This document shows positions 21,019-61,100 of a DNA stretch of 64,000 nt, one piece after another (the stretch's first letter is position 1; every line of letters begins with the position of its first letter). The notes under the pieces were generated by a model. The model saw nothing but the letters and a program-made list of their open reading frames with translations. It did no database searches and was not told the DNA's origin. The stretch comes from Bacteroidota bacterium (lineage in GTDB: Bacteria; Bacteroidota; Bacteroidia; Bacteroidales; JAGONC01), in NCBI GenBank assembly GCA_022711405.1, contig JAKLFC010000005.1, positions 134,278 through 198,277 of the forward strand, read 5' to 3'. Position numbers and translations under genes: made by a program.

Positions 21019-21240
21019 GTACCCTACCCCTGCAGAGGGTGTATCAAAATGCTTTTCTTAAACACAAAGGTACTCAAAGTACTTTACAAAGGAACACTAA
21101 GTTATTCATAATCAATGATAATGCTTTGGGCACCTTTGTGAAAACCTTCGTGTTCCTTTGTGGTTAAATACATTTGATACAACCTCGACGGGGGAGGGGT
21201 AAGATAGAAAAAATCCCCCTGCTTGCACCCGAATCAGGTT
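21019..21240. repeat. GC-rich compound palindrome, copy 4, whose outer arms enclose MITE copy B
   Basis: The left arm gtaccctacccctgca (21019-21034) and right arm gacgggggaggggtaa (21187-21202) match the outer arms of the intact copy at 38757-38812. The downstream module ...ccccctgcttgcacccgaat resembles ccggtgcttgcaccggaat. Confidence 0.65.
21035..21186 (+). mobile_element. MITE-like non-coding repeat, copy B
   Basis: 152 bp. The terminal inverted repeats are GAGGGTGTATCAAA / TTTGATACAACCTC (13 of 14 match). The interior aligns with the reverse complement of 7374-7526. Confidence 0.75.
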
Positions 21241-32500: not shown

Positions 32501-33069
32501 GTCTGTCCCTGGTCGGAAGAGTAGGAGCAGCTCTGCCCGCTTCCACTGTTAATGAATCCGTTATAGAACCATCCGTTGGTGCCAATGGCTACGGACGGGT
32601 CCCCTGAATTGGTTCCGCCTGTGCCATAGATCGTTCCTTCCCAGGATTCACCCGTGTCGAACGAGTAAAGTCCGTCGGCGCCATACAGCGTGCCTCCGGA
32701 TGAGGAGAGTGAATTATTGGAGTTCAGGATCGTTTCCACTTCTCCCGGATCAATGAACACAGAATTTTCGCTCTGCGTCGAGCCTGCATCCGTCACAGCT
32801 ACATCAGGCGAGTCCTCAATGGTCACGCTTCTGGACTTAATGGATGAACCCTTATACTGTGCCGGTTCAGAGATCACATTGGGATTCAGCCTGGTGAGCC
32901 CAAGACGGGCCATCCGCAGCCAGTACCCCTGGTTGTCAATGTAGGTCTGAACCTGGTAGCCCTCTGGCACGTTCTCGTCATCAGCGGATGAACCGGCATT
33001 TTGTGCGGAAAGGGTGAAAGGGATGATGAAAAACAAACAGAAGGAACCAATAAGGAATGATGTACGCAT
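29503..33069 (-). CDS. Large secreted T9SS cargo protein. It has a BNR/sialidase-like beta-propeller, FN3-like and jelly-roll-like domains, two copies of the 88-aa ANAG/WTTSGDGTF repeat, two PKD-like domains and a CTD.
   Basis: Six S-x-D-x-G-x-(T/S)-(W/F) motifs are present: SFDTGESW, SSDQGQTW, STDGGLSW, SLDGGATF, STDGGTTW, SMDGGQTW. The repeats span nt ~30335-30845, the VNDCGEG PKD-like units ~29790-30335, and the tail LFPNPSNGTF...GTYVLYL...KIMVR closes the protein. Confidence 0.8.
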   Translation of the reverse strand: MRTSFLIGSFCLFFIIPFTLSAQNAGSSADDENVPEGYQVQTYIDNQGYWLRMARLGLTRLNPNVISEPAQYKGSSIKSRSVTIEDSPDVAVTDAGSTQSENSVFIDPGEVETILNSNNSLSSSGGTLYGADGLYSFDTGESWEGTIYGTGGTNSGDPSVAIGTNGWFYNGFINSGSGQSCSYSSDQGQTWISVTIAPKPSGFSSLLDKNHLTIDNSTSSPYEGNLYSGWTSFGGSSDNEIEVARSTDGGLSWQQKIMISEAINAGSHNQGVNLQTGPAGEVYAVWAIYDNWPGDENALGFAASLDGGATFQPAQRIIQNIKGIRNTTAGKNHRVNSFPSMAVDISNSSYSGNIYVVWPNVGVPGTNQGPDIYVYMIRSTDGGTTWSTPIKVNQDPMSTGKKHYFPWIACDPVTGTLSVIFYDDRNVSSNQVETWVANSMDGGQTWDDFRVSDVAFSPTPIPGTASGYFGDYLGISARGGVVVPCWTDNRTGAAMTYVSPFTTPTTPNPASDPIPSNGANNVEPFAALHWKDFNNRSSSFRLYLGTDNPPTNIVNGATVQDTFYIPQADFNFQEQYFWRVKSINSFGSALSPIWSFSTEARPDEDFETGNFSKNEWSFSGNANWVINTEEKRNGTYSAASGQIGHSQSSSLMIDLEVKFSPFATSMSFWKKTSTQPGADILQFLMDGTVLGEWSGETDWSEESFIITTGGIHTFEWRYTKDGGSTGGEDRVWIDYVTFPLLEQLLANAGPNATICEGSPFTLSGTANNQTSVLWTTSGDGTFSNPAILKPDYTPGPGDIQNGDVTLTLTAFDETDQVSDDMQLSIQGTPFLEMEENFTICAGEIFSTEGTIAENYASLTWTTSGDGTFDDNTLLSAAYTPGPGDIANGSFGLTLVLTGLYPCGDVSGSMTVTVTPLPAPASTPAGPEMLCQNAGTTTYSVTSIAGASSYLWNLNPEEAGVLTADGTSLSVVWTPEFWGTAELSVLGVNDCGEGPVSEPLQVTLEPLPLQPAAPVGETYVCINFVDTSYYVTSVTEFASLYEWSINPPEAGVITGSDTTGIIAWNQQWTGIAHVTVRGVNDCGEGAWSESIQVILDICGGLEEKTTIDQITLFPNPSNGTFTLRMTTTREDIFDLKVLNALNSVVYEKKNVTWTGTQEMEIGLKDVSSGTYVLYLENSSTTLVRKIMVR

Positions 33070-33886: not shown

Positions 33887-34000
33887 GACCCCGCCCCCTT
33901 CACCCCCTCCCCTTCAGGGGAGGGGGACAGGGGGAGAGGTCATCAAGGGTAAATTCCCCGGTGCTTGCACCGGAATTAGAGACCAGGGCTTGCCCTGGGG
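33887..34000. repeat. GC-rich compound palindrome, copy 2, with two downstream hairpin modules
   Basis: The sequence reads gaccccgccccc-ttca-ccccctcccc-ttca-ggggaggggg-acag-ggggagaggtc, then aagggtaaattccccggtgcttgcaccggaatt, then ccagggcttgccctgg. Confidence 0.75.
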
Positions 34001-38756: not shown

Positions 38757-38847
38757 GTACCCCACCCCTGCACCCCTCCCCTGCTAGCAGGGGAGGGGAC
38801 GGGGGAGGGGTAAAAGGGTAAATTTTCCGGTACTTGCACCGGAATTT
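38757..38847. repeat. GC-rich compound palindrome, copy 3, with downstream hairpin module
   Basis: The sequence reads gtaccccacccc-tgca-cccctcccc-tgctagca-ggggagggg-acg-ggggaggggta, then aaagggtaaattttccggtacttgcaccggaattt. It starts 17 nt after the rbr stop. Confidence 0.75.
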
Positions 38848-43412: not shown

Positions 43413-44852
43413 ATGCTTAACAATATCATAAAACGTTACGCTCAATATGTATTGCTTCTGACTATCTTGAGCTTCAGCAACAGGGTCCAGTCCCAGCAGT
43501 TCTACTTCGGCGCCGATCTGTCTTATGTGAATGAAATGGAAGACTGCGGGGTGGTGTACACCGAAAATTCATCCGCCAAGGATCCATTCCGGCTCTTTGC
43601 CGATCATAACTGCAACCTCGTACGGCTGAGACTATGGCACACGCCTTCTTGGTATGACGGTCTGAATGCGGGCATGCGCTATTCTGACCTGCAGGATGTG
43701 AAGAAGGGCATACAGCGGGCCAGGGAGAAGAATATGAAGGTGCTGCTGGATTATCACCTTTCAGATGACTGGGCGGATGCCAGCCATCAGCTTGTCCCTG
43801 ATGCATGGCTCAGCGTTGTGGATAATCTGCCGCTCCTGAAGGATTCCCTTTACAACTATATTTTCGGTACACTTCTGCAACTCGATGAGGAAGGACTTCT
43901 CCCTGAAATGGTCCAGATCGGCAACGAGACCAACAAAGGCATCCTGCTTTCGCCGCAGGATGACCAGTCGGGCTGGGTACTGGACTGGAACCGCAACAGC
44001 CAGCTGTTCAACACGGCCATACAGGCAGTCAGGGATGTGGAGTCGCAGACAGGAAAACAGGTCCTGGTTGCCGTGCATTTTGCGGATCCTGCCGATGTGG
44101 CCTGGTACGTTTCACAGTTCGTCGCCAACGGCGTGACCGGTTTTGATGTCATTGGCATTTCCTACTACTGGCAGTATCACCAGCCTTATACCATTGACCT
44201 CACAGGCAATGTCATCGCAGCGCTGATCTCGGCCTACCCGCCCTACAAGGTGATGATCTTCGAAACCGGAGCCATCTGGACCACTCAGAGCCACGATAAT
44301 GCGAACAATGTCCTGAACACGGTTGATCCTTCCTATTCACCGGCCAGTACCGAAAACCAGCAGAAGTGGATGATAGATCTCACGCAGAAGGTAATCAATA
44401 GTGGCGGCAGCGGGGTGATCTACTGGGAACCGGCATGGATGTCGTCCGACTGTTATACACAGTGGGGGAAGGGATCGCATTACGAGAATGCCACTTTTTT
44501 TGATTTTGACAACAACCTGATCACTGCCGGCGGCATTGGTTTCATGCAGCATGATTACGAGAATCTTTCCGCGGAAACTGTGGCCATTCCGGATTACGGC
44601 ATACGGGTCATCCCCGACAGCAGCCGGCGGAGAATTATTTTGCAGTTTGGCGACGGCGCCCCGCAGGGAATCTACGGGCTGATGCTCGTGGATCAGGGTG
44701 GGAGAGAGGTGTTTTCCGGCGAAATTAAAAAGCAGGACGTGGCATCCTTACAAAGTTCCATTGACATGCCTCTGCTGCCGGCCGGGATATATGTGTTGGC
44801 GGTGTGGCATGGGAATACCGTTATTGCGAGAGAAAAGATCTTCCTTCATTAG
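43413..44852 (+). CDS. GH53 arabinogalactan endo-beta-1,4-galactanase with a probable T9SS-type C-terminal domain
   Basis: GADLSYVNEME, VRLRLW, QIGNETN (acid/base Glu) and MIFETG (nucleophile Glu) are present. The C-terminal ~80 aa beta-sandwich-like tail reads GIYVLAVWHG...KIFLH. Confidence 0.8.
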   Translation: MLNNIIKRYAQYVLLLTILSFSNRVQSQQFYFGADLSYVNEMEDCGVVYTENSSAKDPFRLFADHNCNLVRLRLWHTPSWYDGLNAGMRYSDLQDVKKGIQRAREKNMKVLLDYHLSDDWADASHQLVPDAWLSVVDNLPLLKDSLYNYIFGTLLQLDEEGLLPEMVQIGNETNKGILLSPQDDQSGWVLDWNRNSQLFNTAIQAVRDVESQTGKQVLVAVHFADPADVAWYVSQFVANGVTGFDVIGISYYWQYHQPYTIDLTGNVIAALISAYPPYKVMIFETGAIWTTQSHDNANNVLNTVDPSYSPASTENQQKWMIDLTQKVINSGGSGVIYWEPAWMSSDCYTQWGKGSHYENATFFDFDNNLITAGGIGFMQHDYENLSAETVAIPDYGIRVIPDSSRRRIILQFGDGAPQGIYGLMLVDQGGREVFSGEIKKQDVASLQSSIDMPLLPAGIYVLAVWHGNTVIAREKIFLH

Positions 44853-44886: not shown

Positions 44887-47800
44887 TCACTCCACTTCCC
44901 CGCTGCCTGCCGCAATCTCCTGGCTCCCCTCCTTACTGAACCAGACTGGCACTACGATCACCACCCGCGTTCCCGGATTGAAGGTCCCTGGCAAAGCTTC
45001 AGCGATGGATACGGAAGTCTCTATCCGGTACTTCCTTCCGATGATCTCCAGCCGCTTGAGCGTCATGGCCATACCCATGCGCAGGTGTGCCTCGCTGTTG
45101 GAAGTGTAGGTGGCCGCCCGTTTCATGCCGATGCCGTTATCCTCAACGGTGATCTGCAGCACATTTGGCTTTAGAAGCCGGAACAGGATACTGATCCTTC
45201 CCATTTCCTTCAGAGAGGAAAGGCCATGCCATACTGCATTTTCAGCGTACGGCTGAATGATCATGGACGGAATCCTCATCCGGAGCTCCCCAACGGTCTC
45301 ATCCTTTTCAATCACGTAGTCGAATTTGTTGCCCATGCGCAACCGCTCCAGGTCGAGGTAATTTCTGAGCCTTTCGATCTCGTCTTCCAGGCTGACCACC
45401 GGGGCGTTGATCGTGGTAATGTTCTGACGGATCAGCCTGGCAAATTTTAAAAGAAAGGTTCCTGCTTCGGCTGACCTGTTCTGCAGCAGGAAATTCTGGA
45501 TCGATCCCAGCACATTGAAGATGAAGTGGGGATTCATGATGGATTGCAGCGCTTTCTGTTCCAGAATGACCATCTGATGATCCAGTTCCCTGCGTCGTAT
45601 CTGGGCATTTTTTCTGAGAATGACACCAAGGGACAGCAGCCCCCCCCAGCAGGATCACTACGGCCAAAAGGAACAATGGATGACGCCAGAAGGTCGGCCT
45701 GACATGAAATGCAAATTCCACAGGCTCACTCCAGTCAGAAGAAGTCTTACGCACCCTCATCCTGAACGTATAATCCCCCACGGGAAGATTCTGATATAAC
45801 AGATCCGTTTCCTGTCCGGATGACCATTGTTTGTCGGCTCCTTCAAGCATATATGAATAGATCGCCGGGCTGTAGGAATAATTGATGCTACCCGGCTGGA
45901 TCTGGATCCTGCTACGGCCCCGCAGAACGATCCGCGAGTAGTCATGGGTTAGATCCCTGTCATTGATCTGGATCGAACGAAAGTATGGAAGTGGAGGTTG
46001 CGTGATGATGTCCTGTATCCCTGAGCAGGGGATGGCTGTCAGCCCGTCATCGCTGGCCACCCACAACCTGTCGTCATCAATGAGGATATCATGGATGTTC
46101 CGGAATTTAAGATCCAAGGGTTGTATATGAACCGTGTCTCCTGTCAGGATATTGAGTGGATTTTCGCAGGTAAAGATTTGCTGATTGGTTGTCAGAAATA
46201 GGTTCGGATGATGGTATGCCATGTTTCTGATCTGCAGTTCAGCCGTATGACCGAATCCCTTGGTCAGATTGAACAATTTCTTTTGATAAAACAGAAACAG
46301 GCTGTCACCTTCAATATTGAGCAATTCGACTGTATCGTTTAAAATGAGATGATCCGTAATGATCTTATTTTCGAAGCAGGATAATTCATCATAAACAATA
46401 AGACTGTCGTTCCTGTACAAATAATTTCTTTTTGCATTGACAAGTAACTCATCATTCGTGTTATACATGGTATTGTAGATCCTTTCACCCAGATATACCT
46501 GTTGTACTTGATGAAAGGGATCCAAAGGATCAAGAAAAATGATTGAATAGGTAGTATAGGCACTGACTTTATCCTTTGAATGATTTGCAATGATCTCCTT
46601 CATCGGTGAAGGATAGAGGTCAGATTCAAGGTAATTGATTTTTCGTGAAGCAGGATCCAGGCTGATTCCCCTGAGCGCATATTGATAGGCATTTTTCTCA
46701 CCCACGATCAGGGTGTTCATTTTGGTATGCAACAACTGATTGAAGGAGCTTCTGATATTTTGAAAATCAGTTGTATATAATTCATTGTCCTGCAGCAGAA
46801 AGACCGTTCGTCCGTTTGTACACCATATTCCATTCTCCGGATGATCGTCCAGCGTCAGGATCCCCATATCCTGGAACAGGCTGTTTTCGTGATGAGTATG
46901 CTGGTTGACATAGGGACTGATCTTATAAACTCCGTCTTTCAGTGAAGTGACCCAGATATTATTCTCATGGTCCTGTATCCCGGCCTGTCCCTCCCTGATG
47001 TCAATATGGCGGATGAAATTGCCGTTCCTGAAACAAAGAATTCCCTTATCGTAGGTCGAGATCCATAAAATACCATCGGAGGTTTCCCAGATACACATGA
47101 TCAGGAATGATCTTGATATTAAAGGTGTTGTTGCAGGATCGGGAATGAATCCATCCAGAAATTTTCTAATGACCCATGGATTTTGCTCGGTTTCTGTATG
47201 TAACTCACCGGTAATGACCCATGTATTTTGCTGAGAGCCCTGATAGATATTCTTGTAATTGAATGTATCGGTAACAAGAATGGGTTGATCGGCAAGGTTT
47301 TTCAGTGTATAAAGCCCGGCAATGGTCCAGAGATAAAATTCACCTGTGTTGGATTTTTTCATGTACCGGATCACCATTCCTTCACGGGGTATATTTCCTG
47401 GTTTAATATAAACGGTAACGCCCGGGTAGGTATATTTTGTTATTATATTTTGGGAATCAAGGGAATAGATCTCCGGTTGAAAATTGTAATAGAAGTAGAT
47501 CGTTTTATTTTCATCCTCGTAGAAGTCACGAAAAAAATCCTTGCTTCTTAATGAATCCAGAAAGGGCGTATTCTTCTCGTTATAAAGCGAGTCGTTATAT
47601 AAATAGTTCAGGGATGCATTCAGATTAAAGAACCAGATCCGGCCCCGGGAATCTTCTTTGATTTTTATCACATCGTTGCTGCTGAGACCATCCTTTTTGG
47701 TGAAATAATCGAACCTGGATCCATCGAACCGGGCCACGCCGGCATCCGTGGCAAACCAGATGAATTTCCGGCTGTCCTGATACACATGGTAAACAACATT

Positions 47801-47941
47801 TGAAGGCAATCCTTCTGTTGTTGTATAATGCTGAATATAAGGACTTTGCGCAGTGCCTCCAATGCTAAATAGAACCAGCAATACAAATAGTATGGTGAAC
47901 TCCTGTTTGCTGATTTTAAGGAAAGCACTCAATGTTTTCAT
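44887..47941 (-). pseudogene. Sensor histidine kinase (Reg_prop beta-propeller + Y_Y_Y domain + TM + LytS/YehU-type His_kinase + HATPase), reading frame broken at a G8 homopolymer
   Basis: ORF 45308-47941 encodes the propeller, Y_Y_Y (YSYMLEGADKQWS...YTFRMRV) and the TM start. ORF 44887-45573 in another frame encodes QKALQSIMNPHFIFNVL...QPYAENAVWHG. The frames join cleanly if the C8 run at 45640-45647 (G8 on the coding strand) is read as 7, giving LLGGLLSLGVILRKNAQIRRRELDHQMVILEQ. Confidence 0.8.
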
Positions 47942-48249: not shown

Positions 48250-49557
48250 ATGATAATGAAAATGATTGTAAGACTGACTGTTGTATTATGCTTGCTGTTG
48301 GCCGCTCCCGGTATCCATGCCCAGATCAACATCGGGAAAAAGATCACGGATAAGGTCAAGGACCGTACCGTTCAGAAAACGGACCAGGCCATTGATAAAG
48401 GACTTGATGAAGTGGAAAAGGGTATCGAGAATCCCCAGGGTGAAGACCAGCAAAATCAACCCGCCACTACCACCGAAAAGAAGGAACAGCAAAAACCTGC
48501 CGAACAGCAGGCTCAGCCAAAAACAGAACCTGCCCCACAGGAGCAGCCCGCCCTGCAGACCTATTCCAAATACGATTTTATTCCAGGCGAAAAGGTGATC
48601 TTTTATGAAGATTTTAGCCAGGATGCCGTGGGGGATTTCCCTGCACTGTGGAACACCAATGGATCTGCCGAAGTGGTCACCACGAATTTGTTTCCCGGCA
48701 ACTGGATGAAATTCGATGGATGGGAGGCCATTTGGACGGATGCCCTACTTGACCTGCCCGATAATTTCACACTGGAGTTCGATGTGATCCCTGTGAAAGA
48801 TAATGAAGGTCATGTGCATGGATTTATGATGCGGTTGATGCAGGCTAAAAATGTAAAAGCATGGGATGGGGGTACAGCCCCGGGAAAAGGAGGATTTCAG
48901 TTCCATACTGATTATGGCAGGCCTTTTTACAGCACCTGGCTGTATGGTACAGAATGTGAGCAGTTGAAAATAGATGGTTACAAGGATGATGAAATGTACA
49001 AACAAAAAGTTGACCAGAAATATCACATGGCCATCTGGGTGCAGAAGTCCAGGCTTCGCTTATACCAGAATGAGTATAAAGTGTTTGATCTGCCAAAAGC
49101 TTTTCCGACTGGATGTGTAAAGCCCGACAGGATCAGGTTTGAAAATGGTGCCGCCATGGTGACCAACATCCGCGTGGCTGTCGGCGCCCCGGACACCAGG
49201 AACAAGCTTCTTACCGAAGGAAAATTAGTTACCTACGGCATCTATTTCGATGTCAACAAGGACATTGTGAAACCGGAATCCAATGGAACCCTGAAAGAAA
49301 TTGCCACTGTACTGACCGAAAATCCGGATGTAAGGATCAAGATCATCGGCCATACGGATTCCGACGGCGCGGATGCCTCGAATCTCGACCTCTCCAAACA
49401 CCGCGCTGCTTCGGTTAAAAATGAGCTCAGCAAGAACTTCGGCATTGATGCATCGCGTATGGAAACCGATGGCAAGGGAGAGACTGAGCCGGTCGCTCCG
49501 AATGATACTCCTGCTAATAAGGCGCTCAATCGCAGGGTTGAATTTATTAAGCTATAA
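48250..49557 (+). CDS. OmpA-family protein (C-terminal OmpA/peptidoglycan-binding domain)
   Basis: It has a signal peptide and a low-complexity Q/P/E/K linker. The C-terminus reads IIGHTDSDG...NLDLSKHRA..V...L......R....G.GE..P...N......N...NRRVEF. Confidence 0.8.
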   Translation: MIMKMIVRLTVVLCLLLAAPGIHAQINIGKKITDKVKDRTVQKTDQAIDKGLDEVEKGIENPQGEDQQNQPATTTEKKEQQKPAEQQAQPKTEPAPQEQPALQTYSKYDFIPGEKVIFYEDFSQDAVGDFPALWNTNGSAEVVTTNLFPGNWMKFDGWEAIWTDALLDLPDNFTLEFDVIPVKDNEGHVHGFMMRLMQAKNVKAWDGGTAPGKGGFQFHTDYGRPFYSTWLYGTECEQLKIDGYKDDEMYKQKVDQKYHMAIWVQKSRLRLYQNEYKVFDLPKAFPTGCVKPDRIRFENGAAMVTNIRVAVGAPDTRNKLLTEGKLVTYGIYFDVNKDIVKPESNGTLKEIATVLTENPDVRIKIIGHTDSDGADASNLDLSKHRAASVKNELSKNFGIDASRMETDGKGETEPVAPNDTPANKALNRRVEFIKL

Positions 49558-49637: not shown

Positions 49638-52415
49638 TTATTTCACGCACCGCACGCTGAATCCGTTTGTCTTATCGCTTGCAAAACGGCTGACACGTGC
49701 ATCATCGTAGTTCAGGTACCTGCTCCAGGCGGTTTGAGCATCATTCTGCGTGGATGACCAGAAGGTACCCAGTTCACCCATATCAAAGAAGCCCCCGTCA
49801 TAGATGTTCCGGTATCCGCCGGGAAGTCCCGTAAACCCGCTGCTGTTCGTGGCCCCCGTGTTGGGTTCTTCCCAGTGGTCCAGCCCGGCCTCCTTCATAT
49901 GGCCCCCCGCATCCAGGCCACACTTGCCCACTTTGTCCCATTCCGGATGACCTGCCGGATACTGGCTGTCGATGGTGCCTGTGAGCGTTTTCAGCTCACT
50001 GTCGGTGGGGATGTGCCAGTTGGGCGGGCAGATGCCACGGGTACCCTGCTGGGTGACATACTGCATGGCTTCAGGCCATTCGTACAGGGCTCCATAGGTC
50101 TCACACTGCACAGGATCGTTGTTGTAACAGTATTTCTCGATGAGATCGTTGTCCGTCTGCTGGTACCCCTCTTCATCGCTGTTGATCCTGGCTCCGATAT
50201 TGAGGTTCTCCGACATCCAGCACTGAGTTCCGACCTGCACGGTGGAATAGACCTGGCCGTCGCGGAAATCGGTGAGAGGATCCCCGCAGTTGAATACGAA
50301 ACTGATCATCACTGCATCCGTTGAGCTGCTGCAATCTGTGGTGATGGTCCATGTAAGGTGATAGGTGCTGTCGACAAGGCCCTGGAAGGTGCTTGCCGGA
50401 TTCGTGGTGTCCTGGATCGTTCCCCCGGTGCCGTTCACGATATGCCACACTCCGGTACCGTTGATGGGGGTGTTGGCAGCCAGCGTGGTCATGTTTCCCG
50501 GAACGTTAATCTGATCCGGACCGGCGCTGGCAGGAGTGGGCTGTGGTACACAGCCGCGTATGCATCGGATCGAATATCCCGAAGGAGGGTTGGCATAGCT
50601 GTAGCGTAAGATGCTTTTATGCTCAAAGTCGAGCAAACGCAGCACGATATAATTCGTGTCCACCCGCGAGGAAGTCCAGAAAAAGGCCGAACTGTCCTTT
50701 TCGATGAAAGAAGCCGTGGATTTATCCCTTCGTCCGCCGGGCAGGCCGGTAAAACCGTATATGTTGGTTGCGCCTGTATTGGGTGCAGCCCACATCACCG
50801 TGGTGGTATCCTTCAGGTTCCCCCCGGCATCCAGTCCCCGCCACCAGTCGTTATCCCAGACCGGATCGCCGGCAGCATACTGGCTGTCGGTAAATCCTTC
50901 GAGCACTTTCCATTCGAAGTCGGACGGGATGTGCCATCCCAGTGGGCAAATTCCCTGGCTGCTGGGAAGGGTGGCATACTGCATGGCTTCGCCCCACTGG
51001 TAAAGACCTCCGAAAAGGGTACAATTGGCGGTATCATTGTCATAACAAAACTTTTCGATGGTTCCATTGTTCGATTGTTCAATGGTTCCTGCGATCATGG
51101 CGCCCACGTTCAGGTTTTCCTTGAGCCAGCATTGATTGCCGATCTGGACCGTGTTATAGGTACGGCCTTCGAAAACGACTTCCTCGATGTCCTCACAGGG
51201 CAAGCCGAAGAGTTCCGCAAAGCTGATTTGGACAGTGTCGGCTGAGTTGCCGCATACGGTGCTGATGATCCAGGCCAGGGCATACTCGTTGCCCTGGATG
51301 CCCTGAAAGCCGCTAAGCGGATTCAGTGTGTCGGCGATGAATCCTCCGGTACCGGTAATGATACGCCAGACACCTGTGCCGCAATCGGGCGTATTTCCTG
51401 TCAGGAACGTATAGGTGTTCTGTACATCTATCTGGTCGGAGCCTGCGCTGGCCTGGGAAGGCTGCGGCACGCAGTTCTTCAGGCACCTTACCGAGAAGCC
51501 GTTTCCCTTCGGGGAGCTGCTTCGCGTCGCATCGTCGGTGGTATAGTACATATAACGGTCCCAGCCACTGGCAGCGTCGGCAGGGGAGGAGGACCAGAAA
51601 ATGCCATATTGCCCCAGGCCCGTAAACGAACCATCGGTGCTGATGCGGTATCCTCCTGCAAGGGCAGTGAATCCGCTGGAGTTCGTGGCTCCGGTGTTAG
51701 GAGCCTGCCAGTGGGTGAGGCCAGCTTCTTTCATCCTGCCTCCGGCCTCTCCCGCGCCACCGAGGAAGGTTGTCAGTACCGTGTAATCCATGTCGGTGGG
51801 CAGGTGCCATCCGGTGGGGCAGATGCCCTGCGCGCCGGCGGTTCCCTGGTATTTCATGGCTTCAGGCCACTGGTAAAGGCCACCGTAGCTGTTGCAATTA
51901 GCCAGAATATTACCATAGCAGTACTTCTCGATGGTTCCATTGTTCGATTGTTCAATGGTTCCTGCAATCATGTTACCCACGTTCAGGTTCTCCCTGAACC
52001 AGCACTGATCCCCGATCAGCACCGTGCTGTATGTTTTTCCGCCGTAGGAAACTGCAGGCGTGCCCGGGCATTGCATTCCCGGTGTTTGCAGGATGAGACT
52101 GGTGACAGAAATGACATCAAGGATGTTGATGATCCCATCTGCGTTCATATCGGTTGCTTCCAGGTCGAACGGATCGGGGCTGCCACCCATGATATAGCTT
52201 ACCATGGCAATGACATCCAGCACATTGACCTGGCCGTCTTCGTTGGCATCTCCAAAAATGGTGTATTCACATTCAGGAGGGGAGGGTGAGGGTTCAAAGA
52301 GGCTGGCCGCCTCTGAGCCCGGCACATCCAGGCACGACAGTGATCCATATATCCGGGTGGTGTATAGGGATAACACTACTGTCATAAATGCAATGAAAAG
52401 TAGCGAATTTTTCAT
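49638..52415 (-). CDS. Secreted protein with an N-terminal type-I-like dockerin and three Fibrobacter succinogenes major paralogous (FISUMP, TIGR02145-like) domains separated by Ig-like linkers
   Basis: It has a signal peptide. The dockerin duplicated segments are GDANEDGQVNVLDVIAMVSYIMGG and DMNADGIINILDVISVTSLIL (nt 52089-52256). Three units carry Y.TV.IG.QCW..ENLN...CY.N....C..YG.LY.W.EA....CP.GWH.P(T/S)D.E...L. Confidence 0.75.
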   Translation of the reverse strand: MKNSLLFIAFMTVVLSLYTTRIYGSLSCLDVPGSEAASLFEPSPSPPECEYTIFGDANEDGQVNVLDVIAMVSYIMGGSPDPFDLEATDMNADGIINILDVISVTSLILQTPGMQCPGTPAVSYGGKTYSTVLIGDQCWFRENLNVGNMIAGTIEQSNNGTIEKYCYGNILANCNSYGGLYQWPEAMKYQGTAGAQGICPTGWHLPTDMDYTVLTTFLGGAGEAGGRMKEAGLTHWQAPNTGATNSSGFTALAGGYRISTDGSFTGLGQYGIFWSSSPADAASGWDRYMYYTTDDATRSSSPKGNGFSVRCLKNCVPQPSQASAGSDQIDVQNTYTFLTGNTPDCGTGVWRIITGTGGFIADTLNPLSGFQGIQGNEYALAWIISTVCGNSADTVQISFAELFGLPCEDIEEVVFEGRTYNTVQIGNQCWLKENLNVGAMIAGTIEQSNNGTIEKFCYDNDTANCTLFGGLYQWGEAMQYATLPSSQGICPLGWHIPSDFEWKVLEGFTDSQYAAGDPVWDNDWWRGLDAGGNLKDTTTVMWAAPNTGATNIYGFTGLPGGRRDKSTASFIEKDSSAFFWTSSRVDTNYIVLRLLDFEHKSILRYSYANPPSGYSIRCIRGCVPQPTPASAGPDQINVPGNMTTLAANTPINGTGVWHIVNGTGGTIQDTTNPASTFQGLVDSTYHLTWTITTDCSSSTDAVMISFVFNCGDPLTDFRDGQVYSTVQVGTQCWMSENLNIGARINSDEEGYQQTDNDLIEKYCYNNDPVQCETYGALYEWPEAMQYVTQQGTRGICPPNWHIPTDSELKTLTGTIDSQYPAGHPEWDKVGKCGLDAGGHMKEAGLDHWEEPNTGATNSSGFTGLPGGYRNIYDGGFFDMGELGTFWSSTQNDAQTAWSRYLNYDDARVSRFASDKTNGFSVRCVK

Positions 52416-52631: not shown

Positions 52632-52659
52632 TTTGCTAAATGATAATTACATATATTTG
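52632..52659 (+). promoter_or_regulatory. Promoter (-33 TTTG, -7 TATATTTG) for the kinase/activator pair
   Basis: TTTG at 52632-52635 and TATATTTG at 52652-52659 are 16 nt apart. The ATG is at 52678. Confidence 0.4.
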
Positions 52660-52677
52660 CTGTCATGTGTAGTGGCA

Positions 52678-54444
52678 ATGGAGAAGCACCCAACGGTCAG
52701 CAAATTACAGAAACGGGTAACCCATCTTGAAGAAACCCTGGAGCGGAGAACACAGGAACTGGTAGATGAAATGATCTACTCGGTGAGGTTTATTGAAGAT
52801 ATGGTTGTAAATTCACCCTACCTGGTGGCCATCACGGATGCGGATGGCAGAATCCAATTCGTGAATGAAGTGTTCATCCAAACCATGGGGTATTCGCTGG
52901 AAGAATTGCGGGGAAAGGTCAGGATCTTTCACAAGGGATACCCCGAAGATACGAAGGGCCTTCAGGAGATCAGCGAAGCACTGAGCAGGAACGAAGCCTG
53001 GAAGGGCGCTACGGAGGTGAAGACACGTGACGGAAGGATACTCACCCTCCGGGGGATCATTTTCACTGTGATGTCAGAAACGGGAATGCCCCTCAGGATC
53101 GCCATGTTCTATGATATCACCGGTGAACGGCAACGTGAAAACCTGTTCCGGATCCTTCATGAGATCGATTCCCTCAGCAATGTTTCTGTCACCCTGGATG
53201 CATCGCTCGAACTGGCGGGCAACTACCTGCATCAGATCGAATGGATCGATCTGTTCTCGATCCATTTGATGAACGAGGCGTCAGGTTATCTGGAAATGGT
53301 CTATTCCAGGGGGACATCAAAACAGTTCGAAAACACTGTCATGCAATACCCTGCATCCAGCAGGACCGTGGCTGATGTGATCGGACATAGGGCCACCTAT
53401 ATCGATCACACCCTGTTTGATCAGTTGGTGGATGAGAACTTAAAGGATGGTTTCAGGAAAGAAGGATTGCAATATATTGCCAGCATTCCGTTGATATACC
53501 AGGATAAAGTGATCGGAGCCCTTAATCTCGGATCCAAAAAAGATCACCCTCCTGATGAGCTCACACGCACCGCCCTGGAGGCGATCGCCTCCAAGCTGGC
53601 CACCCTGATCGCCCTGGTCAGGACCCGTCAACAGCTGGAGGAGACTACCATGGAGCTGAAAAAACACATCTATGAGCTGAACACCAAACAGCAGATGCTG
53701 ATCCAGAAATCCCGCCTGGAATCGCTCGGGGAATTGTCGGCCGGCTTCAGCCATGAGATCAACCAGCCGCTGGCCGTCATCTCGCTGGTGATGGAAAATA
53801 TACTCCACAGGGTCAGCGATGGCAAAGCAGGCAAAGTGTATCTGACCCGGAAGCTGAACACCATCAGCCAGAACCTTACTAAAATACAGCAGCTTATTGA
53901 TCATATCCGTATCTTCTCCCGCGACCAGGCCGTGTTGTCGCTCGATCGTCTCGACGTCAACGAACGGATCCACAGTGCCCTTTCGATGATGGGAGCCCAG
54001 CTGCGGAAGCACCAGATCCGCGTGATCACAGACCTGTGGAACGGTGAAGGCTATACGGTCGGCAATCCCTCCCGTTTCGAACAGGTGATCCTCAACCTGC
54101 TCACCAATGCCCGTGATGCCCTGGAAGAGAAAGGAAAGCTTCATTTTGGCAACATTCAGCCCAAAGAGATCCGGATCACCACTCAACCCAACGCGAAAAA
54201 GATCGAACTAAAAGTGTGGGATAATGGAATTGGCATTCAGCATGAAAACATTGACAGGCTCTTTGACCCGTTCTATACGACAAAATCCGGGGGGACAGGC
54301 CTGGGATTGCCCATTATTTATGGCATTGTCACTGAGATGCACGGTGAGATCACTGCCCGGTCAATCCCTGGCGAGTTCACGGAAATGACCGTCTTATTGC
54401 CATTTCATCATTCCAGGATCGAAGAAGGGAGCGCTGTGCCATGA
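52678..54444 (+). CDS. PAS/GAF sensor histidine kinase (HisKA + HATPase_c), cytoplasmic
   Basis: The PAS region is ITDADGRIQFVNEVFIQTMGYSLEEL, followed by a GAF-like middle region. The H-box is FSHEINQPL. The N, G1 and G2 boxes are NLLTNARDA, DNGIGI and GTGLGL. No TM segment. ATG 52678 is preferred over the in-frame TTG at 52633 because of the promoter position. Confidence 0.85.
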   Translation: MEKHPTVSKLQKRVTHLEETLERRTQELVDEMIYSVRFIEDMVVNSPYLVAITDADGRIQFVNEVFIQTMGYSLEELRGKVRIFHKGYPEDTKGLQEISEALSRNEAWKGATEVKTRDGRILTLRGIIFTVMSETGMPLRIAMFYDITGERQRENLFRILHEIDSLSNVSVTLDASLELAGNYLHQIEWIDLFSIHLMNEASGYLEMVYSRGTSKQFENTVMQYPASSRTVADVIGHRATYIDHTLFDQLVDENLKDGFRKEGLQYIASIPLIYQDKVIGALNLGSKKDHPPDELTRTALEAIASKLATLIALVRTRQQLEETTMELKKHIYELNTKQQMLIQKSRLESLGELSAGFSHEINQPLAVISLVMENILHRVSDGKAGKVYLTRKLNTISQNLTKIQQLIDHIRIFSRDQAVLSLDRLDVNERIHSALSMMGAQLRKHQIRVITDLWNGEGYTVGNPSRFEQVILNLLTNARDALEEKGKLHFGNIQPKEIRITTQPNAKKIELKVWDNGIGIQHENIDRLFDPFYTTKSGGTGLGLPIIYGIVTEMHGEITARSIPGEFTEMTVLLPFHHSRIEEGSAVP

Positions 54445-55826
54445 AATCAGTGAAGATCCCTGTGCTGATCCTTGACGATGAGCCTGAAATAGGCCGTGAG
54501 ATAAGGGAGTTCCTCACCGGCAGCAGCTACCGGGTCAACGTGGTACTCACACCATCGGAGGCATTTCGATTCCTGGAGAAGAATCCTGTGGAGATCGCGC
54601 TTCTTGACATCTGCCTGCCGGAGATGAGCGGCCTGGAGGTGCTCAGAAAGATCCGCCAGAAATATCCTTCCACCGAAGTGATCATGATGAGCGGCCATGG
54701 CGATATGGATTCGGTGATCATGTCGCTGCGGCTGGGTGCCGTCGACTTTTTCAAGAAACCGTTCCACATGCCGGAGATGCTGGAAACACTGGATAAGACC
54801 AAAAAACTGATCCACACCGTACGGCAGTCCAATGGCGATCATTTCCGCCATGTCCTGGATGAGGATTTCGGAAAGGAACCTGCCTCGCCGCTGATCGCTG
54901 TCAGCCAGGCCATGCAGGCCGTGGTGGACCAGATGCGGCTTGTCGCCCATTCCTCCGACACCACTGTCCTGATCACCGGCGAAAGCGGCACCGGCAAGGA
55001 GCTCATCGCCCGCGGCATCCATTACCTGAGCAGCCGAAGCGACAAGCCCTTTCATGCCGTCAACTGCTCCTCTGTGCCCGACGAGCTATTCGAAAGCGAA
55101 TTTTTCGGCTACCGGAAGGGTGCGTTCACGGGAGCCCTCACCGACAAGGCCGGGTGGTTCGAGGTCGCACACCAGGGATCTCTTTTCCTGGACGAGATTG
55201 CCGATATGAAACCCGGCCTGCAGGCCAAGCTGCTGCGCATCATGGATGACCGGAAGATCAGCCGGCTGGGTTCCACCACGCTGCAAGCCGTTGATATCCG
55301 TGTGATCGCCGCCACCAACCAGGACATCGAGCGGCTGGCGCGGGAGGGACAGTTCCGCTCCGACCTGTACCACCGGCTGAACGCTTTCTGCATCCACGTC
55401 CCTCCCCTTCGCGAGCGCCGCGAGGGTATCCCGCACCTGCTCCGGCATTTTGTCGAATGGTACTCCAGGAAGCTGAACCACGATGTTCCCCGGCTGGATC
55501 CTTCGATACAGGACGCCATGCTCCGGTACGATTTCCCCGGCAATGTCAGGGAGCTGAAACACATGGTGGAGCGGGCGCTGATCCTTTGCCAGGGCGAGAC
55601 GCTCACCTTCGATCATTTCGACCAGTTGAAGATCAAGCTGCAGGCCACCGGTGCTTTTCCGGCCCATGGCAGCGCCTCCCGGCGCCTGTGCACGACCGAG
55701 AAAGAATCCATCGAGGCCGCGCTGGCCGCCTCCGGCGGCAACAAGTCGAAGGCCGCACGGATGCTGGGGATATCGCGCCAGGCATTGGATAGAAAGATAG
55801 TTAAGCTGAAGATTCAGCTTCCTTAA
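54441..55826 (+). CDS. Sigma-54-dependent response regulator (REC + AAA+ with GAFTGA + Fis-type HTH; NtrC family)
   Basis: REC is LILDDEPEI...LLDICLPEMSG. Walker A is GESGTGKE. The sigma-54 contact loop is GAFTGA. The HTH is KSKAARMLGISRQALDRKI. 4-nt overlap with the kinase gene. Confidence 0.9.
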   Translation: MKSVKIPVLILDDEPEIGREIREFLTGSSYRVNVVLTPSEAFRFLEKNPVEIALLDICLPEMSGLEVLRKIRQKYPSTEVIMMSGHGDMDSVIMSLRLGAVDFFKKPFHMPEMLETLDKTKKLIHTVRQSNGDHFRHVLDEDFGKEPASPLIAVSQAMQAVVDQMRLVAHSSDTTVLITGESGTGKELIARGIHYLSSRSDKPFHAVNCSSVPDELFESEFFGYRKGAFTGALTDKAGWFEVAHQGSLFLDEIADMKPGLQAKLLRIMDDRKISRLGSTTLQAVDIRVIAATNQDIERLAREGQFRSDLYHRLNAFCIHVPPLRERREGIPHLLRHFVEWYSRKLNHDVPRLDPSIQDAMLRYDFPGNVRELKHMVERALILCQGETLTFDHFDQLKIKLQATGAFPAHGSASRRLCTTEKESIEAALAASGGNKSKAARMLGISRQALDRKIVKLKIQLP

Positions 55827-55875: not shown

Positions 55876-57371
55876 ACGAGTGTTCAAAACATTAAAAACA
55901 AATATTTAAAGCATCCATTATCAATAAATGTTCTTTGACATTTTGAGAATTAAGGTTTAGCGTTGATAGCTATCGAAAAAACGTGTTTGGGTCTCCACCA
56001 CTCTGTTCAATCATGACATCATCGATGATATCGCCTAATTCGATGGCAAATCGTCTTTTAGCTGTTTTATAGCCAAACTCGTTAATTTTTTTGTAAATCA
56101 GGATTAACATCGCAAGAATCAGGGTCATGTAAAGGAGTATTTTAATTCCATTCTCATTGACGCTGATAAGGTGAGAAAAATTTAACTCCTGTTTGATAAA
56201 CCGGAAAAAGACTTCAATATCCCATCGGTGTTTGTATATCAGGATGATCTCCTGGCAGGTCAAATCAAACCGATTGGTCAGAAACCAGTATTGTATTCCT
56301 TTTGCGTTTTGTGTCTGGATTAATCGAAACGGATGTTCCAGCACATGATTTCCGGATCGATACAGGTATACGCACTGATCTTTCAAAACAGTAAGATTCC
56401 TGACAACAAGGCCTGGTGGAAAGGCAATATCATTCAAAACAACATGACGGGCATCTACCTGCAATCGGGTAACAAAGGAACAGTCATGTGTGTCCAGTTC
56501 GTAGAAGACATCACGGCTTGAAACACCCCTGTCAAAGACAAAAACATTGTCTTTGCTTTTATCCATGACCTTGAGGATGACTTTGGGGATGGTCAGGCTC
56601 TCGCAGATATACTTTTGTTGAGTAAAGATCTCTACGCTGCTGGGAAACATGTCTGTTAAACTGATGGTGTACTTGACCTGCTTTTTACCATCTTTTTTCA
56701 CCCCGACACGGATTCCCTGCTCAAGTTTGGCAGCGGTTTGACAAACCATGGTTGAATCAACCCGTGTAATCCTATAGTGTAGAGATAAAGTCGGTTCATC
56801 GTATAAAAGGCTGCATTGCTCATGGATGGCCTCATAAGCCTTCTCGAAATAACTGACATTCATGGTTGCCAACCGGGCAGAAAGAGAATTGTACCTGGCA
56901 TTCGGCGGGGTGCCAGGTAATTTGAACATAGCCTTAAATTTCCGGGAGTTGTAGAAGTCCTCCAGCGACCTTAGTCCCACTCGCTCCCCGGTAAGAAGTC
57001 CATATAACAATAAATTAAACACATTACGGCCATAGAGCTTTTTGACCTGATAATCCACCTTGGTTTCCTTAGCTAAATCAAGCAATAGATCATCCGGGAT
57101 GAGTTTTAACAGATCGCTGACTCCGATGCCATCTTCCTTGAACTTCATTATGGTAAAGAATAGCATCAAAGGTAATGACGAATAGTGTGGTAATCGACTC
57201 AAAATCAACAGATTTTATCAACACAGCATGAAACAAATTGTTGATAACCAGTGATTTAGATAAATATACACAGATAGATAGTTAATATCATCCTATATAT
57301 TGTTAACAACGCCTATTTTCTCAAAATGTCAAAGAACGTTAAGTATGATCTAGAATGTTTTGAACACTCGT
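55876..57371 (-). mobile_element. Complete IS4-family-like insertion sequence, 1496 bp
   Basis: The 18-bp terminal inverted repeats are perfect: ACGAGTGTTCAAAACATT (55876-55893) and AATGTTTTGAACACTCGT (57354-57371). An 11-bp direct repeat AATTCCAGGAT flanks it (55865-55875 and 57372-57382). There is a single transposase ORF. A second internal 20-bp inverted repeat GTTCTTTGACATTTTGAGAA lies at 55930-55949 / 57318-57337. Confidence 0.85.
55970..57208 (-). CDS. IS4-family DDE transposase
   Basis: 412-aa maximal ORF. The likely start is MKFKEDG at 57148. The N-terminal region DLLKLIPDDLLLDLAKETKVDYQVKKL and the C-terminal YKHRWDIEVFFRFIKQ (Y-x2-R-x3-E-x6-K-type signature) are typical of IS4 transposases. 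Confidence 0.8.
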   Translation of the reverse strand: MILSRLPHYSSLPLMLFFTIMKFKEDGIGVSDLLKLIPDDLLLDLAKETKVDYQVKKLYGRNVFNLLLYGLLTGERVGLRSLEDFYNSRKFKAMFKLPGTPPNARYNSLSARLATMNVSYFEKAYEAIHEQCSLLYDEPTLSLHYRITRVDSTMVCQTAAKLEQGIRVGVKKDGKKQVKYTISLTDMFPSSVEIFTQQKYICESLTIPKVILKVMDKSKDNVFVFDRGVSSRDVFYELDTHDCSFVTRLQVDARHVVLNDIAFPPGLVVRNLTVLKDQCVYLYRSGNHVLEHPFRLIQTQNAKGIQYWFLTNRFDLTCQEIILIYKHRWDIEVFFRFIKQELNFSHLISVNENGIKILLYMTLILAMLILIYKKINEFGYKTAKRRFAIELGDIIDDVMIEQSGGDPNTFFR

Positions 57372-58133: not shown

Positions 58134-58174
58134 ATATAATCCAATCATTTAGAATCAACCCAAATCTTAGAATT

Positions 58175-61100
58175 ATGAAAAAGAATTTTACTCTTGTTAT
58201 GCTGACAGGTATGTTGATGTTCAGCATATTCAGTATTGCTCAAACTACGTACACATTTCCTGGCGGGACTTTAAGCGGATCCTTCGGAGTTTGGGGGGGT
58301 ACAGGTTATTTTTACCCACCCTCCTTCAATGTGAATGCACCCGGGGGGATTGATATTACATATTTTGATATTGATGTATCCCAATTTACGGAGGCAAATG
58401 TTTGGTCTACAAAAGGTGTCGCAGAACCTGGAATAAGTGGCTCAAATTTCATGAATAGTATTGATCCAGAGAATAATAGCGTATGGTGCAATATTTTAAA
58501 CATGGAAATTGCTTCTGGTGTCGATTGGGACGGTCACTCTTTATCAACTTTGGGTCCTGATGGAATCGTTGGGACATCTGACGATTCAAGACATCAGGGT
58601 ACTCAGGATTGGTACAGGAAAGCCACTGACGGTAAGATTGACGGTCCGGCTGCTGGTCCGTATTATAATAACGAAAGTTATGTAACGCCTAATCCACGCC
58701 ACCCTTCTGCAACGGCATACAGTGCTTCTCAATTGAACAGTTACGATTTTCGTTTACGGGTTTTGCCAACAGGAGGAAACACCTATACGTATGAGATGTG
58801 GTTCAGGATGCATAATTCTGCTGCTGAGGTTGAAGGAGCCTATTGGGCCTACAATACCGCACTTAATAACACAGCAAAACATGGGACCGATGCCTGGAGA
58901 AAATTTGCTCAAGGGCCGACGGATGTATTTCCTATAACAGATATTGATCTATCCTCAGTCTATGTTTTTATGGGTCTGGGGAATTTCGCAGATCCTGCCT
59001 CTCACTCACTAGCCTGGGGTCAGATACAGGTCACGGGCACTTATGCCGCACCTGCGGAGGTTTGGGTAGATGATGGCTATACTTCCAGCGGACCGAATGA
59101 CGGGCACTGGTGGGGATATGACGCATTTGCAACCATACAGGACGGTGTCAACGCGGTGGCCACGGGAGGTACGGTGAATGTGGCAGCGGGGACGTATACT
59201 GAGCAAATAAATGTAATAAAAGCAGTCATTATTAAAGGGAACAATGCCGGAGTAGCCGGTTGCGGAACAACAAGAAATACAGAATCAATCGTTAACGGAG
59301 GATTTTACCTTACCGCTGCAGCCACCATCGACGGATTTCATATTCAGAATGGATACCATTTCGGATCTTTTTATGACGGTCTAGCTGTAAATACCGACGA
59401 TGTAACCCTTCAAAACAACATCATCGAATTATGTGATGATGCTGCACAAGGCAATGGTATAGAGATGGTCAGCGGATCTGACAATCTGGATATCGTCGCG
59501 AATGATATCAGGAACAATTGGAGAGGGATTTATCTCAATCCTGCAACTGGCATTACTATTACTGCTAACTGCATTCACGACAATAACGGTTGCGGGGTTG
59601 GCATCGGTTCCGACGGACAAAACAACCTGACCGTTACCCACAATTTCTTTTACAATCAGACTGTGGAAGGATGGGGTGCCAGTGCAGTTGGAGCCAATGT
59701 GGTTGCGCATAACAACTCTTTCATCCAAAGCGGCACAGCCAAGATGGTTGCCCACTACGGTGGTTCTGCCATAGACGCCTCCTGCAACTGGTGGGGGTCA
59801 GCAAGTCCTGATTTTACAAGCCTGATCACTGGTTTAGTAAATGCTGACCCATGGTTGGTGGATGGGACGGACAACAGTGCTGAAATCGGATTTCAACCTT
59901 TGTATGACGCCTGTTCCGGTACAAATAATCCTGTGACCTATGCCGCCAAGGAAGTCAAGCCTACCGGCAGCATCAGCCTGCCCGTCATGGTGGATAATTT
60001 CAACAATGTGGCTGCTATCTCTTTGTACATGAACTTTGATCCCGCCATACTTACCTTTACAGGATTTACCCCGCATGGTTCCCTGCCGTCACTTACCGCC
60101 ACAAATCCTTCTTCAGGCCTGATCATTATCGGTTGGAACAATGGCGCCGCTGGGGTGACCATACCGGGCAGCAAAGTGGAAATTGTCATGCTCCATTTTA
60201 CTTTCGCCGGAGGCACTTCCCTGCTTGCGTGGGATGACACCGACGATTGGCCTTGCGAGTATGCCTATCCGGTCAGTTCCTGGGAAACAGCAGTGTATCC
60301 CGATGATCCTGCCTCCACTTATTACATTCCGGGCTGGGTGACCAACCTGGGGGTGACTTTCACCCGGACTTACACTCCGGCACCCGGGACCATCACGGCG
60401 GTACCCCAGGGAGGTACAAGTCCGTTTACTTATTCCTGGACAGGACCGGGTGGATTCACTGCCGGAAATACGGCAACCATAACCCCCACCAACGAGTATG
60501 GCGACTACGTGGTAACGGTGACCGACGCCCTCGGAGCAACAACAACGGGCACTTATTACTACGGCCCGGTGCATAATATCGATACATATATTGATTATGC
60601 GTTGCTGAATGATGCCATTGATGCTGCTGCCACTCTTGACGGGCACACCATCACCATGGATCCGGGCACTTATGTCGAAATCGGGCAAATTGTCGTGGAC
60701 AAGAATCTGACCATCATCGGTGACAGTAAGACGACAACCATCATCAAACCAAATGCAGATTATACATCATCTACCGACGGATGGATCAAGGTGGTTGGAG
60801 GAAAAACGCTGGATCTTTCCAATGTCCAGCTTGACGGTACAGGCTATAATATTTTTAATGCCATGTATTTCCTTGGAGATGGTAATGTCGATAACTGTAC
60901 CATCACAGACATACAATATCAACCTTCAGGGCCGGCTTACCGCGGGACAGGAATTCTGGTGGAAAATGGCTGCGATGTGGATATTACCGGTTGTGATTTT
61001 ACGTATATCGGACGTGACGGTATTCGCCACAGGGGTACAGGAGCCGTACAGAATAACACTTACACCGGCAAAGGTGCAGGCGATTGGATGGATTATTTTA

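Follow-up and report, generated by a model that had tools for sequence, protein, structure and literature searches.

A type-I-like dockerin at the N-terminus of a secreted triple-FISUMP protein suggests a recruited binding subunit in a Bacteroidota bacterium

In a 64-kb stretch of a Bacteroidota genome (64,000 nucleotides of contig JAKLFC010000005.1, hereafter the window), we studied an open reading frame (ORF) at 49638-52415 on the minus strand. It encodes 925 amino acids plus a stop, in the order signal peptide, linker, dockerin, FISUMP1, Ig-like spacer, FISUMP2, Ig-like spacer, FISUMP3, where FISUMP stands for the Fibrobacter succinogenes major paralogous domain. An earlier sequence-only reading had proposed that the protein is a ligand-binding subunit that plugs into a scaffold, and this is the reading that appears best supported. 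Based on the sequence comparisons below, we think it fairly probable that the protein is a secreted, non-catalytic, multivalent binding protein that docks into a surface cohesin of a cellulosome-like assembly.

The dockerin is genuine by profile match, by similarity to solved dockerins, and by predicted fold. Two calcium-binding loop-plus-helix segments had been proposed directly after the signal peptide, and both are there, GDANEDGQVNVLDVIAMVSYIMGG at aa 55-78 (nt 52182-52253) and DMNADGIINILDVISVTSLIL at aa 89-109 (nt 52089-52151), in a type-I-like module that covers aa 51-112 (52080-52265, minus strand). Each segment has a 12-residue loop of the form D-x-N-x-D-G-x-(I/V)-N-x-x-D (aa 56-67, nt 52215-52250, and aa 89-100, nt 52116-52151) followed by a helix, with the calcium-ligand D or N at loop positions 1, 3, 5, 9, and 12 (D56, N58, D60, N64, and D67 in the first loop, and D89, N91, D93, N97, and D100 in the second). 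The loops are spaced ~33 residues apart and the two halves are identical at 11 of 24 positions. The Pfam Dockerin_1 hidden Markov model (HMM; PF00404), suggested earlier as a check, matches significantly, with 39.3 bits for the whole protein and 43.4 bits for the N-terminal 115 aa against a curated cutoff of 22.9, and solved cellulosomal dockerins are matched by sequence (6kg9, E 2e-6, and 1daq).

Structure prediction, the other suggested check, gave the paired loop-helix fold of a dockerin. We modeled aa 40-320 with AlphaFold 2 (AF2) from an alignment of 27 homologous segments, and the dockerin part has a predicted local distance difference test (pLDDT) of 77-90 and shows the loop-helix unit twice, its helices spanning aa 65-75 and 98-109 and a short one at aa 85-88 connecting them. 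When this part was compared with the PDB using Foldseek, the top 26 matches were all dockerins, with a template modeling score normalized to the target, TM(target), of 0.35-0.91 (at least 0.68 save for three double-dockerin entries) and root-mean-square deviations of 1.2-2.2 Å over 56-61 residues for most single-dockerin entries and up to 5.3 Å for others. In all six frames of the window, the loop pattern and a family-specific dockerin HMM matched the focal ORF and nothing else, and therefore this is not a chance motif. We also considered a disulfide "clasp" around the dockerin (C49/C116), which is not conserved in an orthologue (P0002) and hence is not claimed.

The other parts of the protein lie on either side of the dockerin, all on the minus strand. 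A Sec-type, non-lipoprotein signal peptide, read from the sequence, occupies roughly aa 1-24 (52344-52415) and consists of MKN, a 15-residue hydrophobic core, and TTRIYG|S. The Pro/Ser-rich linker that follows (aa 25-50, 52266-52343) was also read from the sequence and has a pLDDT below 50 where the model begins. As claimed earlier, there are three FISUMP copies, and both TIGR02145 (365 bits against a cutoff of 41.65) and PF09603 (347 bits against 33.9) find them as three stretches, with local boundaries at aa 119-315 (51471-52061), aa 410-622 (50550-51188), and aa 715-925 (49641-50273), the last of which extends through the final residue. Between them are two Ig/PKD-like spacers of ~90 residues each that are 56% identical to each other, at aa 316-409 (51189-51470), with a faint DUF8237 (PF26707) match in precomputed annotation, and at aa 623-714 (50274-50549), with a weak match to a K319L-like PKD domain (E 0.015).

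FISUMP/DUF1566 domains are frequent targets of diversity-generating retroelements. There is no template/variable repeat pair within the window, so we rejected the focal FISUMP domains as a target of the CLec2 class; the only repeat that touches the focal gene is the internal FISUMP1/FISUMP2 paralogy, and no template copy was found elsewhere in the 64 kb.

The FISUMP region also matches Lcl_C/DUF1566 (49.7 bits against 34.9). DUF1566/Lcl_C is a solved C-type-lectin-like adhesin domain that binds sulphated glycans (PMC11162425), and the FISUMP/DUF1566 type forms a class of diversified ligand-binding domains (PMC5758913). It is this family relationship that supports a putative carbohydrate-binding role for the focal FISUMP domains. 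Multivalency through three copies would also suit an adaptor scaffold, in which the FISUMP domains are protein-docking modules and the focal protein plugs into a cohesin to recruit other proteins instead of substrate, and an early proposal took TIGR02145 for a possible analogue of cohesin (Warnecke 2007, as relayed in PMC4704652). We consider an adaptor of this kind very unlikely given that the organism has real cohesins, that FISUMP is related to lectin-like ligand-binding domains and not to cohesins (PMC11162425), and that no partner motif is known. As far as the suggestion is relayed in PMC4704652, the fusion of FISUMP to a dockerin argues against TIGR02145 as a cohesin analogue.

A cohesin is encoded in the same window. 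The earlier reading had pointed to a cohesin-like module at about 59930-60340, which proves to be a real cohesin by Pfam, by the profile of its relatives, by AF2, and by Foldseek, and we place it at 59900-60370 on the plus strand. It belongs to a gene at 58172-64000 (plus strand) that runs off the end of the window, where the 5' part (1942 aa) of a secreted beta-helix/NosD/SprB-repeat protein is seen, a candidate surface anchor. Full-length versions in GCA_035390505.1 and sister assemblies are 3220-3329 aa long, with the beta-helix/NosD part and SprB repeats. In one of these (P0121) there is a second cohesin at aa 2978-3111, beyond the window, just before a type IX secretion system (T9SS) Por_Secre_tail domain at aa 3139-3208 (28.5 bits against 27), so by its sequence the cohesin carrier has a T9SS tag for surface display. 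A loosely dockerin-like stretch at about aa 2860-2930 of P0121 has no Pfam match. Directly 3' of the giant gene, past the window, there is a 1154-aa Big_2-repeat protein that reaches the contig end (L082:19756-23217).

Scanned alone, the first cohesin passes Pfam Cohesin (PF00963) marginally, at 25.2 bits against 24.1. A word-indexed protein search with this module found nothing as a single sequence and just 16 short unnamed proteins as a profile. An exhaustive HMMER search returned 942 cluster representatives, 58 of them at E<=1e-30, and the stretches matched in these relatives are strong Pfam cohesins (for example, P0122 has six cohesins at 228 bits). A profile built from 31 of the relatives' modules matches solved cohesins with E values down to 2e-10. 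The AF2 model of the module has a pLDDT of 92.6 and a predicted TM-score (pTM) of 0.86, and Foldseek's first 50 PDB matches to it are cohesins without exception, mostly of type I. Both halves of the solved type-I complexes 6kgc A/B and 2vn5 A/B are among the best matches to the focal dockerin and to the cohesin. Having found the focal dockerin and a cohesin carrier, we therefore conclude that the genome encodes both halves of a cohesin-dockerin pair. Most relatives of the cohesin have several modules, with two or more in 147 of 150, four as the mode, and 13 as the maximum. They have a Bacteroidota-style signal peptide followed by a glutamine and adjoin Por_Secre_tail proteins.

The architecture of the focal protein recurs. 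Among its 120 best homologues, 43 combine a dockerin with FISUMP, mostly in Lentimicrobiaceae and Bacteroidales metagenome-assembled genomes (MAGs), and in nearly all of these the dockerin follows directly after the signal peptide. A T9SS tail was found in five of the 120, and the two devices occur together in none, which suggests that dockerin and T9SS tail may be alternative anchoring devices of FISUMP arrays. Another FISUMP subgroup (P0024, P0026, P0027, P0035, and others) has a different duplicated loop module, GDGDANGQVNNADK...GDFSMNGQVDNVDK, at about aa 190, with no Pfam support. A similar duplicated-loop module ends a four-cohesin protein (P0131), where Dockerin_1 scores 19.8 bits, below its cutoff.

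Scanning species-representative genomes with the dockerin alignment gave 270 confirmed loci. In the best 80 of these 270, which we used for the distribution across MAGs and phyla, the loci concentrate in a few MAGs that have many each, with eight in Lentimicrobiaceae Go_SlDig_bin_446, nine in Bacteroidales STD1_41, and 16 in CAYQRU01. Thus related MAGs have at least 8-16 dockerin loci each, and the genome studied here has one dockerin protein in its 64-kb window and one two-cohesin protein. The same dockerin subtype is found in a few Neomarinimicrobiota loci (L021, L049, L060, and L064) and in one of Zixibacteria (L055), where six dockerin ORFs lie within 15 kb.

In the flanks of these loci we found 126 dockerin-bearing ORFs of two classes. 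In the first, the dockerin is at the N-terminus and one to four FISUMP domains follow. In the second and much larger class, the dockerin is C-terminal or ~200-270 residues before the C-terminus, and its passengers include gingipain-like C25 peptidases, CUB-domain C10 peptidases, an M14 carboxypeptidase, and a glycoside hydrolase family 18 (GH18) chitinase. The sequence-only reading had called an N-terminal dockerin unusual, which is true of dockerins generally, with 108 of the 124 from related loci at the C-terminus or in a sub-C-terminal position, but within the focal family it is the rule, and the 43 homologues noted above have the same architecture. The C10 and M14 proteins have a dockerin and a Por_Secre_tail in one chain, which places the function of this dockerin subtype outside the cell; the C25 and GH18 proteins end in the dockerin and have no T9SS tail. 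Genes of the second class are often in tandem arrays of four or five, as in the Bacteroidales MAG loci L024, L027, L044-L046, L061, and L076. The ORFs that we scanned in L024, L027, and L046 include gingipain-like C25, C10+CUB, and M14 peptidases, several of them with both dockerin and T9SS tail. In the literature searched, we found no description of such a peptidase-rich dockerin repertoire for Bacteroidota.

The two classes have a common core, GD.N.DG.VNVLD(I/V)I..VNYI.G.NP.PF...AD.N.DG.INVLD(I/V)I..VNII. The cohesin-contact positions 10 and 11 are V-L in both repeats in 94-100% of the first class and 69-88% of the second. Because these contact residues are common to both classes, a single cohesin specificity may serve all of the passengers, and a dockerin surface that is conserved across paralogues and genomes leads us to expect a conserved protein partner. 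On this sequence evidence we consider it likely, with somewhat better than even confidence, that the focal dockerin binds a cohesin of some kind. In an alignment of 124 modules (L006-L081), the enzyme-type dockerins have a conserved Cys pair inside the module (DANCDG...PFCF, 59% and 66%), while in the FISUMP-type dockerins cysteines flank the module (75% and 100%). Possibly the two types solve disulfide bonding differently within one fold.

That the giant neighbour is the specific partner of the focal dockerin is doubtful, and any other cohesin carrier of the genome could fill this role just as well. The side of the locus beyond the start of the focal gene, with a PAS-GAF kinase, a sigma-54 regulator, and the giant cohesin gene, is common only to the 95% relative and is wholly different at 82% and 77% identity. 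Synteny thus rules out operon-like pairing of cohesin and dockerin genes as a general rule, and the pairing holds only at about the species level. Since the adjacency is not conserved, the proximity of the cohesin, though real in the window strain, is no evidence of a dedicated pair. Across the 126 dockerin genes, we found a cohesin no farther than 10 kb away just once, in locus L042, where a 483-aa protein (L042:8729-10177, plus strand) joins a cohesin to Ig and HYR domains and has the focal dockerin subtype at its C-terminus, making it an adaptor-type component.

These patterns bear on whether the focal dockerin has a cohesin partner at all. It might instead be an orphan, a calcium-stabilised structural or otherwise-binding module on a free secreted or periplasmic lectin. 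An orphan would fit with the wide occurrence of non-cellulosomal dockerins that have no known partner (Peer et al. 2009, as cited in PMC6487960 and PMC8542988), with the near absence of cohesin genes from the vicinity of dockerin genes in related genomes, and with a cohesin adjacency that is not conserved for the focal gene. Real cohesins do exist in the focal genome, however, the contact positions are nearly invariant across paralogues and passenger classes, as one would expect if they meet a conserved protein partner, and the relatives of the cohesin form multi-copy, scaffoldin-like arrays. We therefore regard an orphan dockerin as unlikely, though it is the alternative that we take most seriously.

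Several points weigh against a docked binding subunit. No signal that would take the focal protein across the outer membrane can be recognised, as it has neither a T9SS tail nor a lipobox, and the FISUMP part of the AF2 model is of low confidence. Adjacency to a cohesin gene is seen only in the window strain and the 95% relative and is lost at 82%, 80% (dockerin segment), 77%, and 67% identity, and there is a single cohesin ORF in the 1.08 Mb of flanks around the 126 dockerin genes. The multi-cohesin representatives that we looked up sit on unbinned contigs. The 43/5/0 split between dockerin, tail, and both is, taken alone, non-significant (p ~0.08 by our own estimate).

The most serious of our concerns for the mechanism is export. 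A Sec signal in a diderm cell delivers a protein to the periplasm only. The dockerin had been proposed as the means of retaining the protein at the cell surface, and it can retain a protein there, but with a Sec signal only it cannot carry one across the outer membrane. The earlier statements that T9SS C-terminal domain and lipobox are both absent hold up. Por_Secre_tail has no match in the focal protein even at E<=1, and because FISUMP3 occupies the end of the chain there is no room for a T9SS C-terminal domain. A lipoprotein reading was rejected, as Cys28, the sole lipobox candidate, is replaced by Tyr in P0002 and P0003, the 82% and 77% orthologues, and is absent from other orthologues.

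By its sequence, the window organism does appear to rely on the T9SS. An 814-aa protein with ~88-aa internal repeats (repeat family D2) at 19-2463 (plus strand) has a Por_Secre_tail at 46.5 bits, a 1188-aa BNR/PKD_6 protein at 29503-33069 (minus strand) has a sorting domain at 37.6 bits, and an M1 peptidase at 25735-27723 (plus strand) has a borderline T9SS tail (26.7 against 27). With at least three clear T9SS-tailed proteins in the window, the absence of the tag from the focal protein is conspicuous, and together with the missing lipobox and the FISUMP3 domain that ends the chain it would fit a protein that stays in the periplasm, where any cohesin contact would be made, for example transiently with T9SS cargo before export. 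We think such a periplasmic protein distinctly improbable, as FISUMP/DUF1566-type domains are at the surface or extracellular where studied (PMC5758913, PMC11162425, PMC4619616), T9SS-tailed FISUMP arrays exist among the homologues, and the C25 and GH18 enzymes, whose substrates lie outside the cell, have no tail after a terminal dockerin of this subtype.

Because these tail-less C25 and GH18 enzymes depend on substrates outside the cell, dockerin proteins that have no tail probably do leave it. Possibilities are co-export after pre-assembly in the periplasm with a cohesin-bearing T9SS cargo, or vesicles or lysis, or else a function in the periplasm. In the first of these, tail-less dockerin proteins would bind the cohesins of T9SS-tailed carriers in the periplasm and cross the outer membrane as T9SS passengers. 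We give this "hitch-hiking" only a small chance, and we know of no precedent for it in type IX secretion. If it were true, the dockerin would be export ticket and surface anchor at once.

Taking the protein to be a docked binding subunit, the steps could be as follows. It would be exported by Sec and its signal peptide cleaved, and the N-terminal type-I-like dockerin would fold around two calcium ions. The dockerin would then insert into a cohesin of a T9SS-exported, T9SS-anchored surface protein, for which the giant beta-helix protein is one candidate. The three putatively C-type-lectin-related FISUMP domains, on their Ig-like spacers, would face outward and bind a polymeric, probably glycan, ligand, and the focal protein would thus serve a cellulosome-like assembly at the surface as the subunit that binds substrate or particles. 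In related genomes, the same assembly would recruit dockerin-tagged C25, C10, and M14 peptidases and the GH18 chitinase via the same dockerin specificity.

The genes around the focal gene differ in how well they are conserved. On the lower-coordinate (3') side are a convergent OmpA-C-domain protein (48250-49557, plus strand), which is conserved in orthologous loci, a Y_Y_Y/His_kinase sensor, a GH53 endo-beta-1,4-galactanase (43413-44852, plus strand), which is kept near the orthologue in four other genomes, and a major facilitator superfamily (MFS) transporter. This side is conserved in the orthologues at 95%, 80% (dockerin segment), 77%, and 67% identity, and in the 82% orthologue (L088) the OmpA-like gene alone is kept from it. 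The GH53 neighbour is a weak hint that the ligand might be plant galactan. The sensor has Y_Y_Y/Reg_prop and His_kinase domains and is split in the window (44887-47941, minus strand) into overlapping ORFs at 45308-47941 and 44887-45573, where the tail of the first looks out of frame. It is intact as a single ORF of ~1017 aa in the 95% relative (L086) and in L007, and the split is a frameshift or an assembly error in the window strain.

On the other side, the PAS-GAF histidine kinase and sigma-54-dependent response regulator (52633-55826, plus strand) are divergent from the focal gene. With a sigma-54 activator as divergent neighbour, we looked for a sigma-54 promoter 5' of the focal gene and rejected the candidate, as matches to the consensus are no more frequent in the window than chance predicts (272 observed against 281 expected); the regulator pair is also not a conserved neighbour. 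The sigma-54 regulator is separated from the giant gene by an IS4-family DDE transposase (55970-57208, minus strand), a strain-specific insertion, given that the 95% relative (L087) has none at this position. We also noted a 48-nt repeat in three copies (21187-21234, 33929-33976, and 38798-38845), with 60-77% identity to the reference copy and the end ...CTTGCACC(C/G)GAAT.

FISUMP is among the largest uncharacterised surface-protein domain families of fibre- and polymer-degrading anaerobes. A conserved dockerin fusion casts it as a recruited binding subunit, not a scaffold element, and gives a handle for both its anchor and its ligand. More broadly, our data point to a T9SS-tied cohesin-dockerin system among Lentimicrobiaceae and their Bacteroidales relatives, groups that abound in anaerobic digesters and sediments. 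Loaded mainly with peptidases, a chitinase, and lectin-like proteins, such a system would, if true, be a protein- and glycan-degrading counterpart of the cellulosome in diderms, and the export of its tail-less members is a concrete question about the T9SS.

Cohesin and dockerin modules are reported to occur outside cellulosome producers (Peer et al. 2009, as cited in PMC6487960 and PMC8542988), and Bacteroidetes dockerins have been reported from rumen metagenomes (Bensoussan et al. 2017, PMC6487960). As far as these surveys are represented there, they do not include the fusion to FISUMP, the cohesin carriers with T9SS tails, or the multi-copy Lentimicrobiaceae dockerin repertoire described here. 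We found no literature linking FISUMP to dockerins, or Lentimicrobium to cohesin-dockerin systems. New in our analysis are FISUMP as a passenger, a dockerin placed at the N-terminus, the lineage, and signs that peptidases and lectin-like binders have one dockerin specificity in common.

The closest known counterpart is the cellulosome-like complex that Williams et al. (2021, PMC8542988) inferred, from sequence only, in Cloacimonadota "Ca. Stygibacter" MAGs. Its scaffoldin of 3755 aa has tandem cohesins and a T9SS-type C-terminal domain, and its GH18, GH57, S8, and C25 enzymes have C-terminal dockerins (PMC8542988). By analogy, it may be essentially the same type of system as the one proposed here, as both are in diderms of the Fibrobacterota-Chlorobiota-Bacteroidota (FCB) group with a T9SS-tailed cohesin carrier, and its signal-peptide-bearing GH18 and gingipain-like C25 enzymes match the Bacteroidales passengers. 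In contrast, the Cloacimonadota are a different phylum, their dockerins are C-terminal and on enzymes, and no FISUMP passengers or N-terminal dockerins were reported.

The clostridial and ruminococcal cellulosomes and the Ruminococcus bromii amylosome have, like our system, type-I-like dockerins with two calcium loops and near-symmetric halves and cohesins of the type-I fold, and in R. bromii Sas20 a non-enzymatic substrate-binding subunit is recruited via a dockerin, as we propose for the focal protein (PMC9112005, PMC4611034). In those Gram-positive systems Sec alone reaches the surface, and scaffolds are anchored by S-layer homology (SLH) domains or sortase. Unlike them, the system proposed here is in a diderm, with T9SS-tailed scaffold candidates, FISUMP in place of a carbohydrate-binding module (CBM), an N-terminal dockerin, and co-recruited enzymes that are mostly peptidases.

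Fibrobacter succinogenes FISUMP proteins and Legionella LdtA and Lcl belong to the same superfamily as the focal protein and are likewise cysteine-rich and extracytoplasmic, with an N-terminal anchor and a distal, C-terminal lectin-like domain. The anchor is a lipid in the Fibrobacter members and LdtA and an N-terminal helix in Lcl (PMC5758913, PMC11162425), whereas in the focal protein it would be the dockerin, and there is no diversity-generating retroelement in the 64-kb window. By this comparison the N-terminal position of the dockerin makes sense, as it would take the place of the N-terminal anchor of the FISUMP superfamily.

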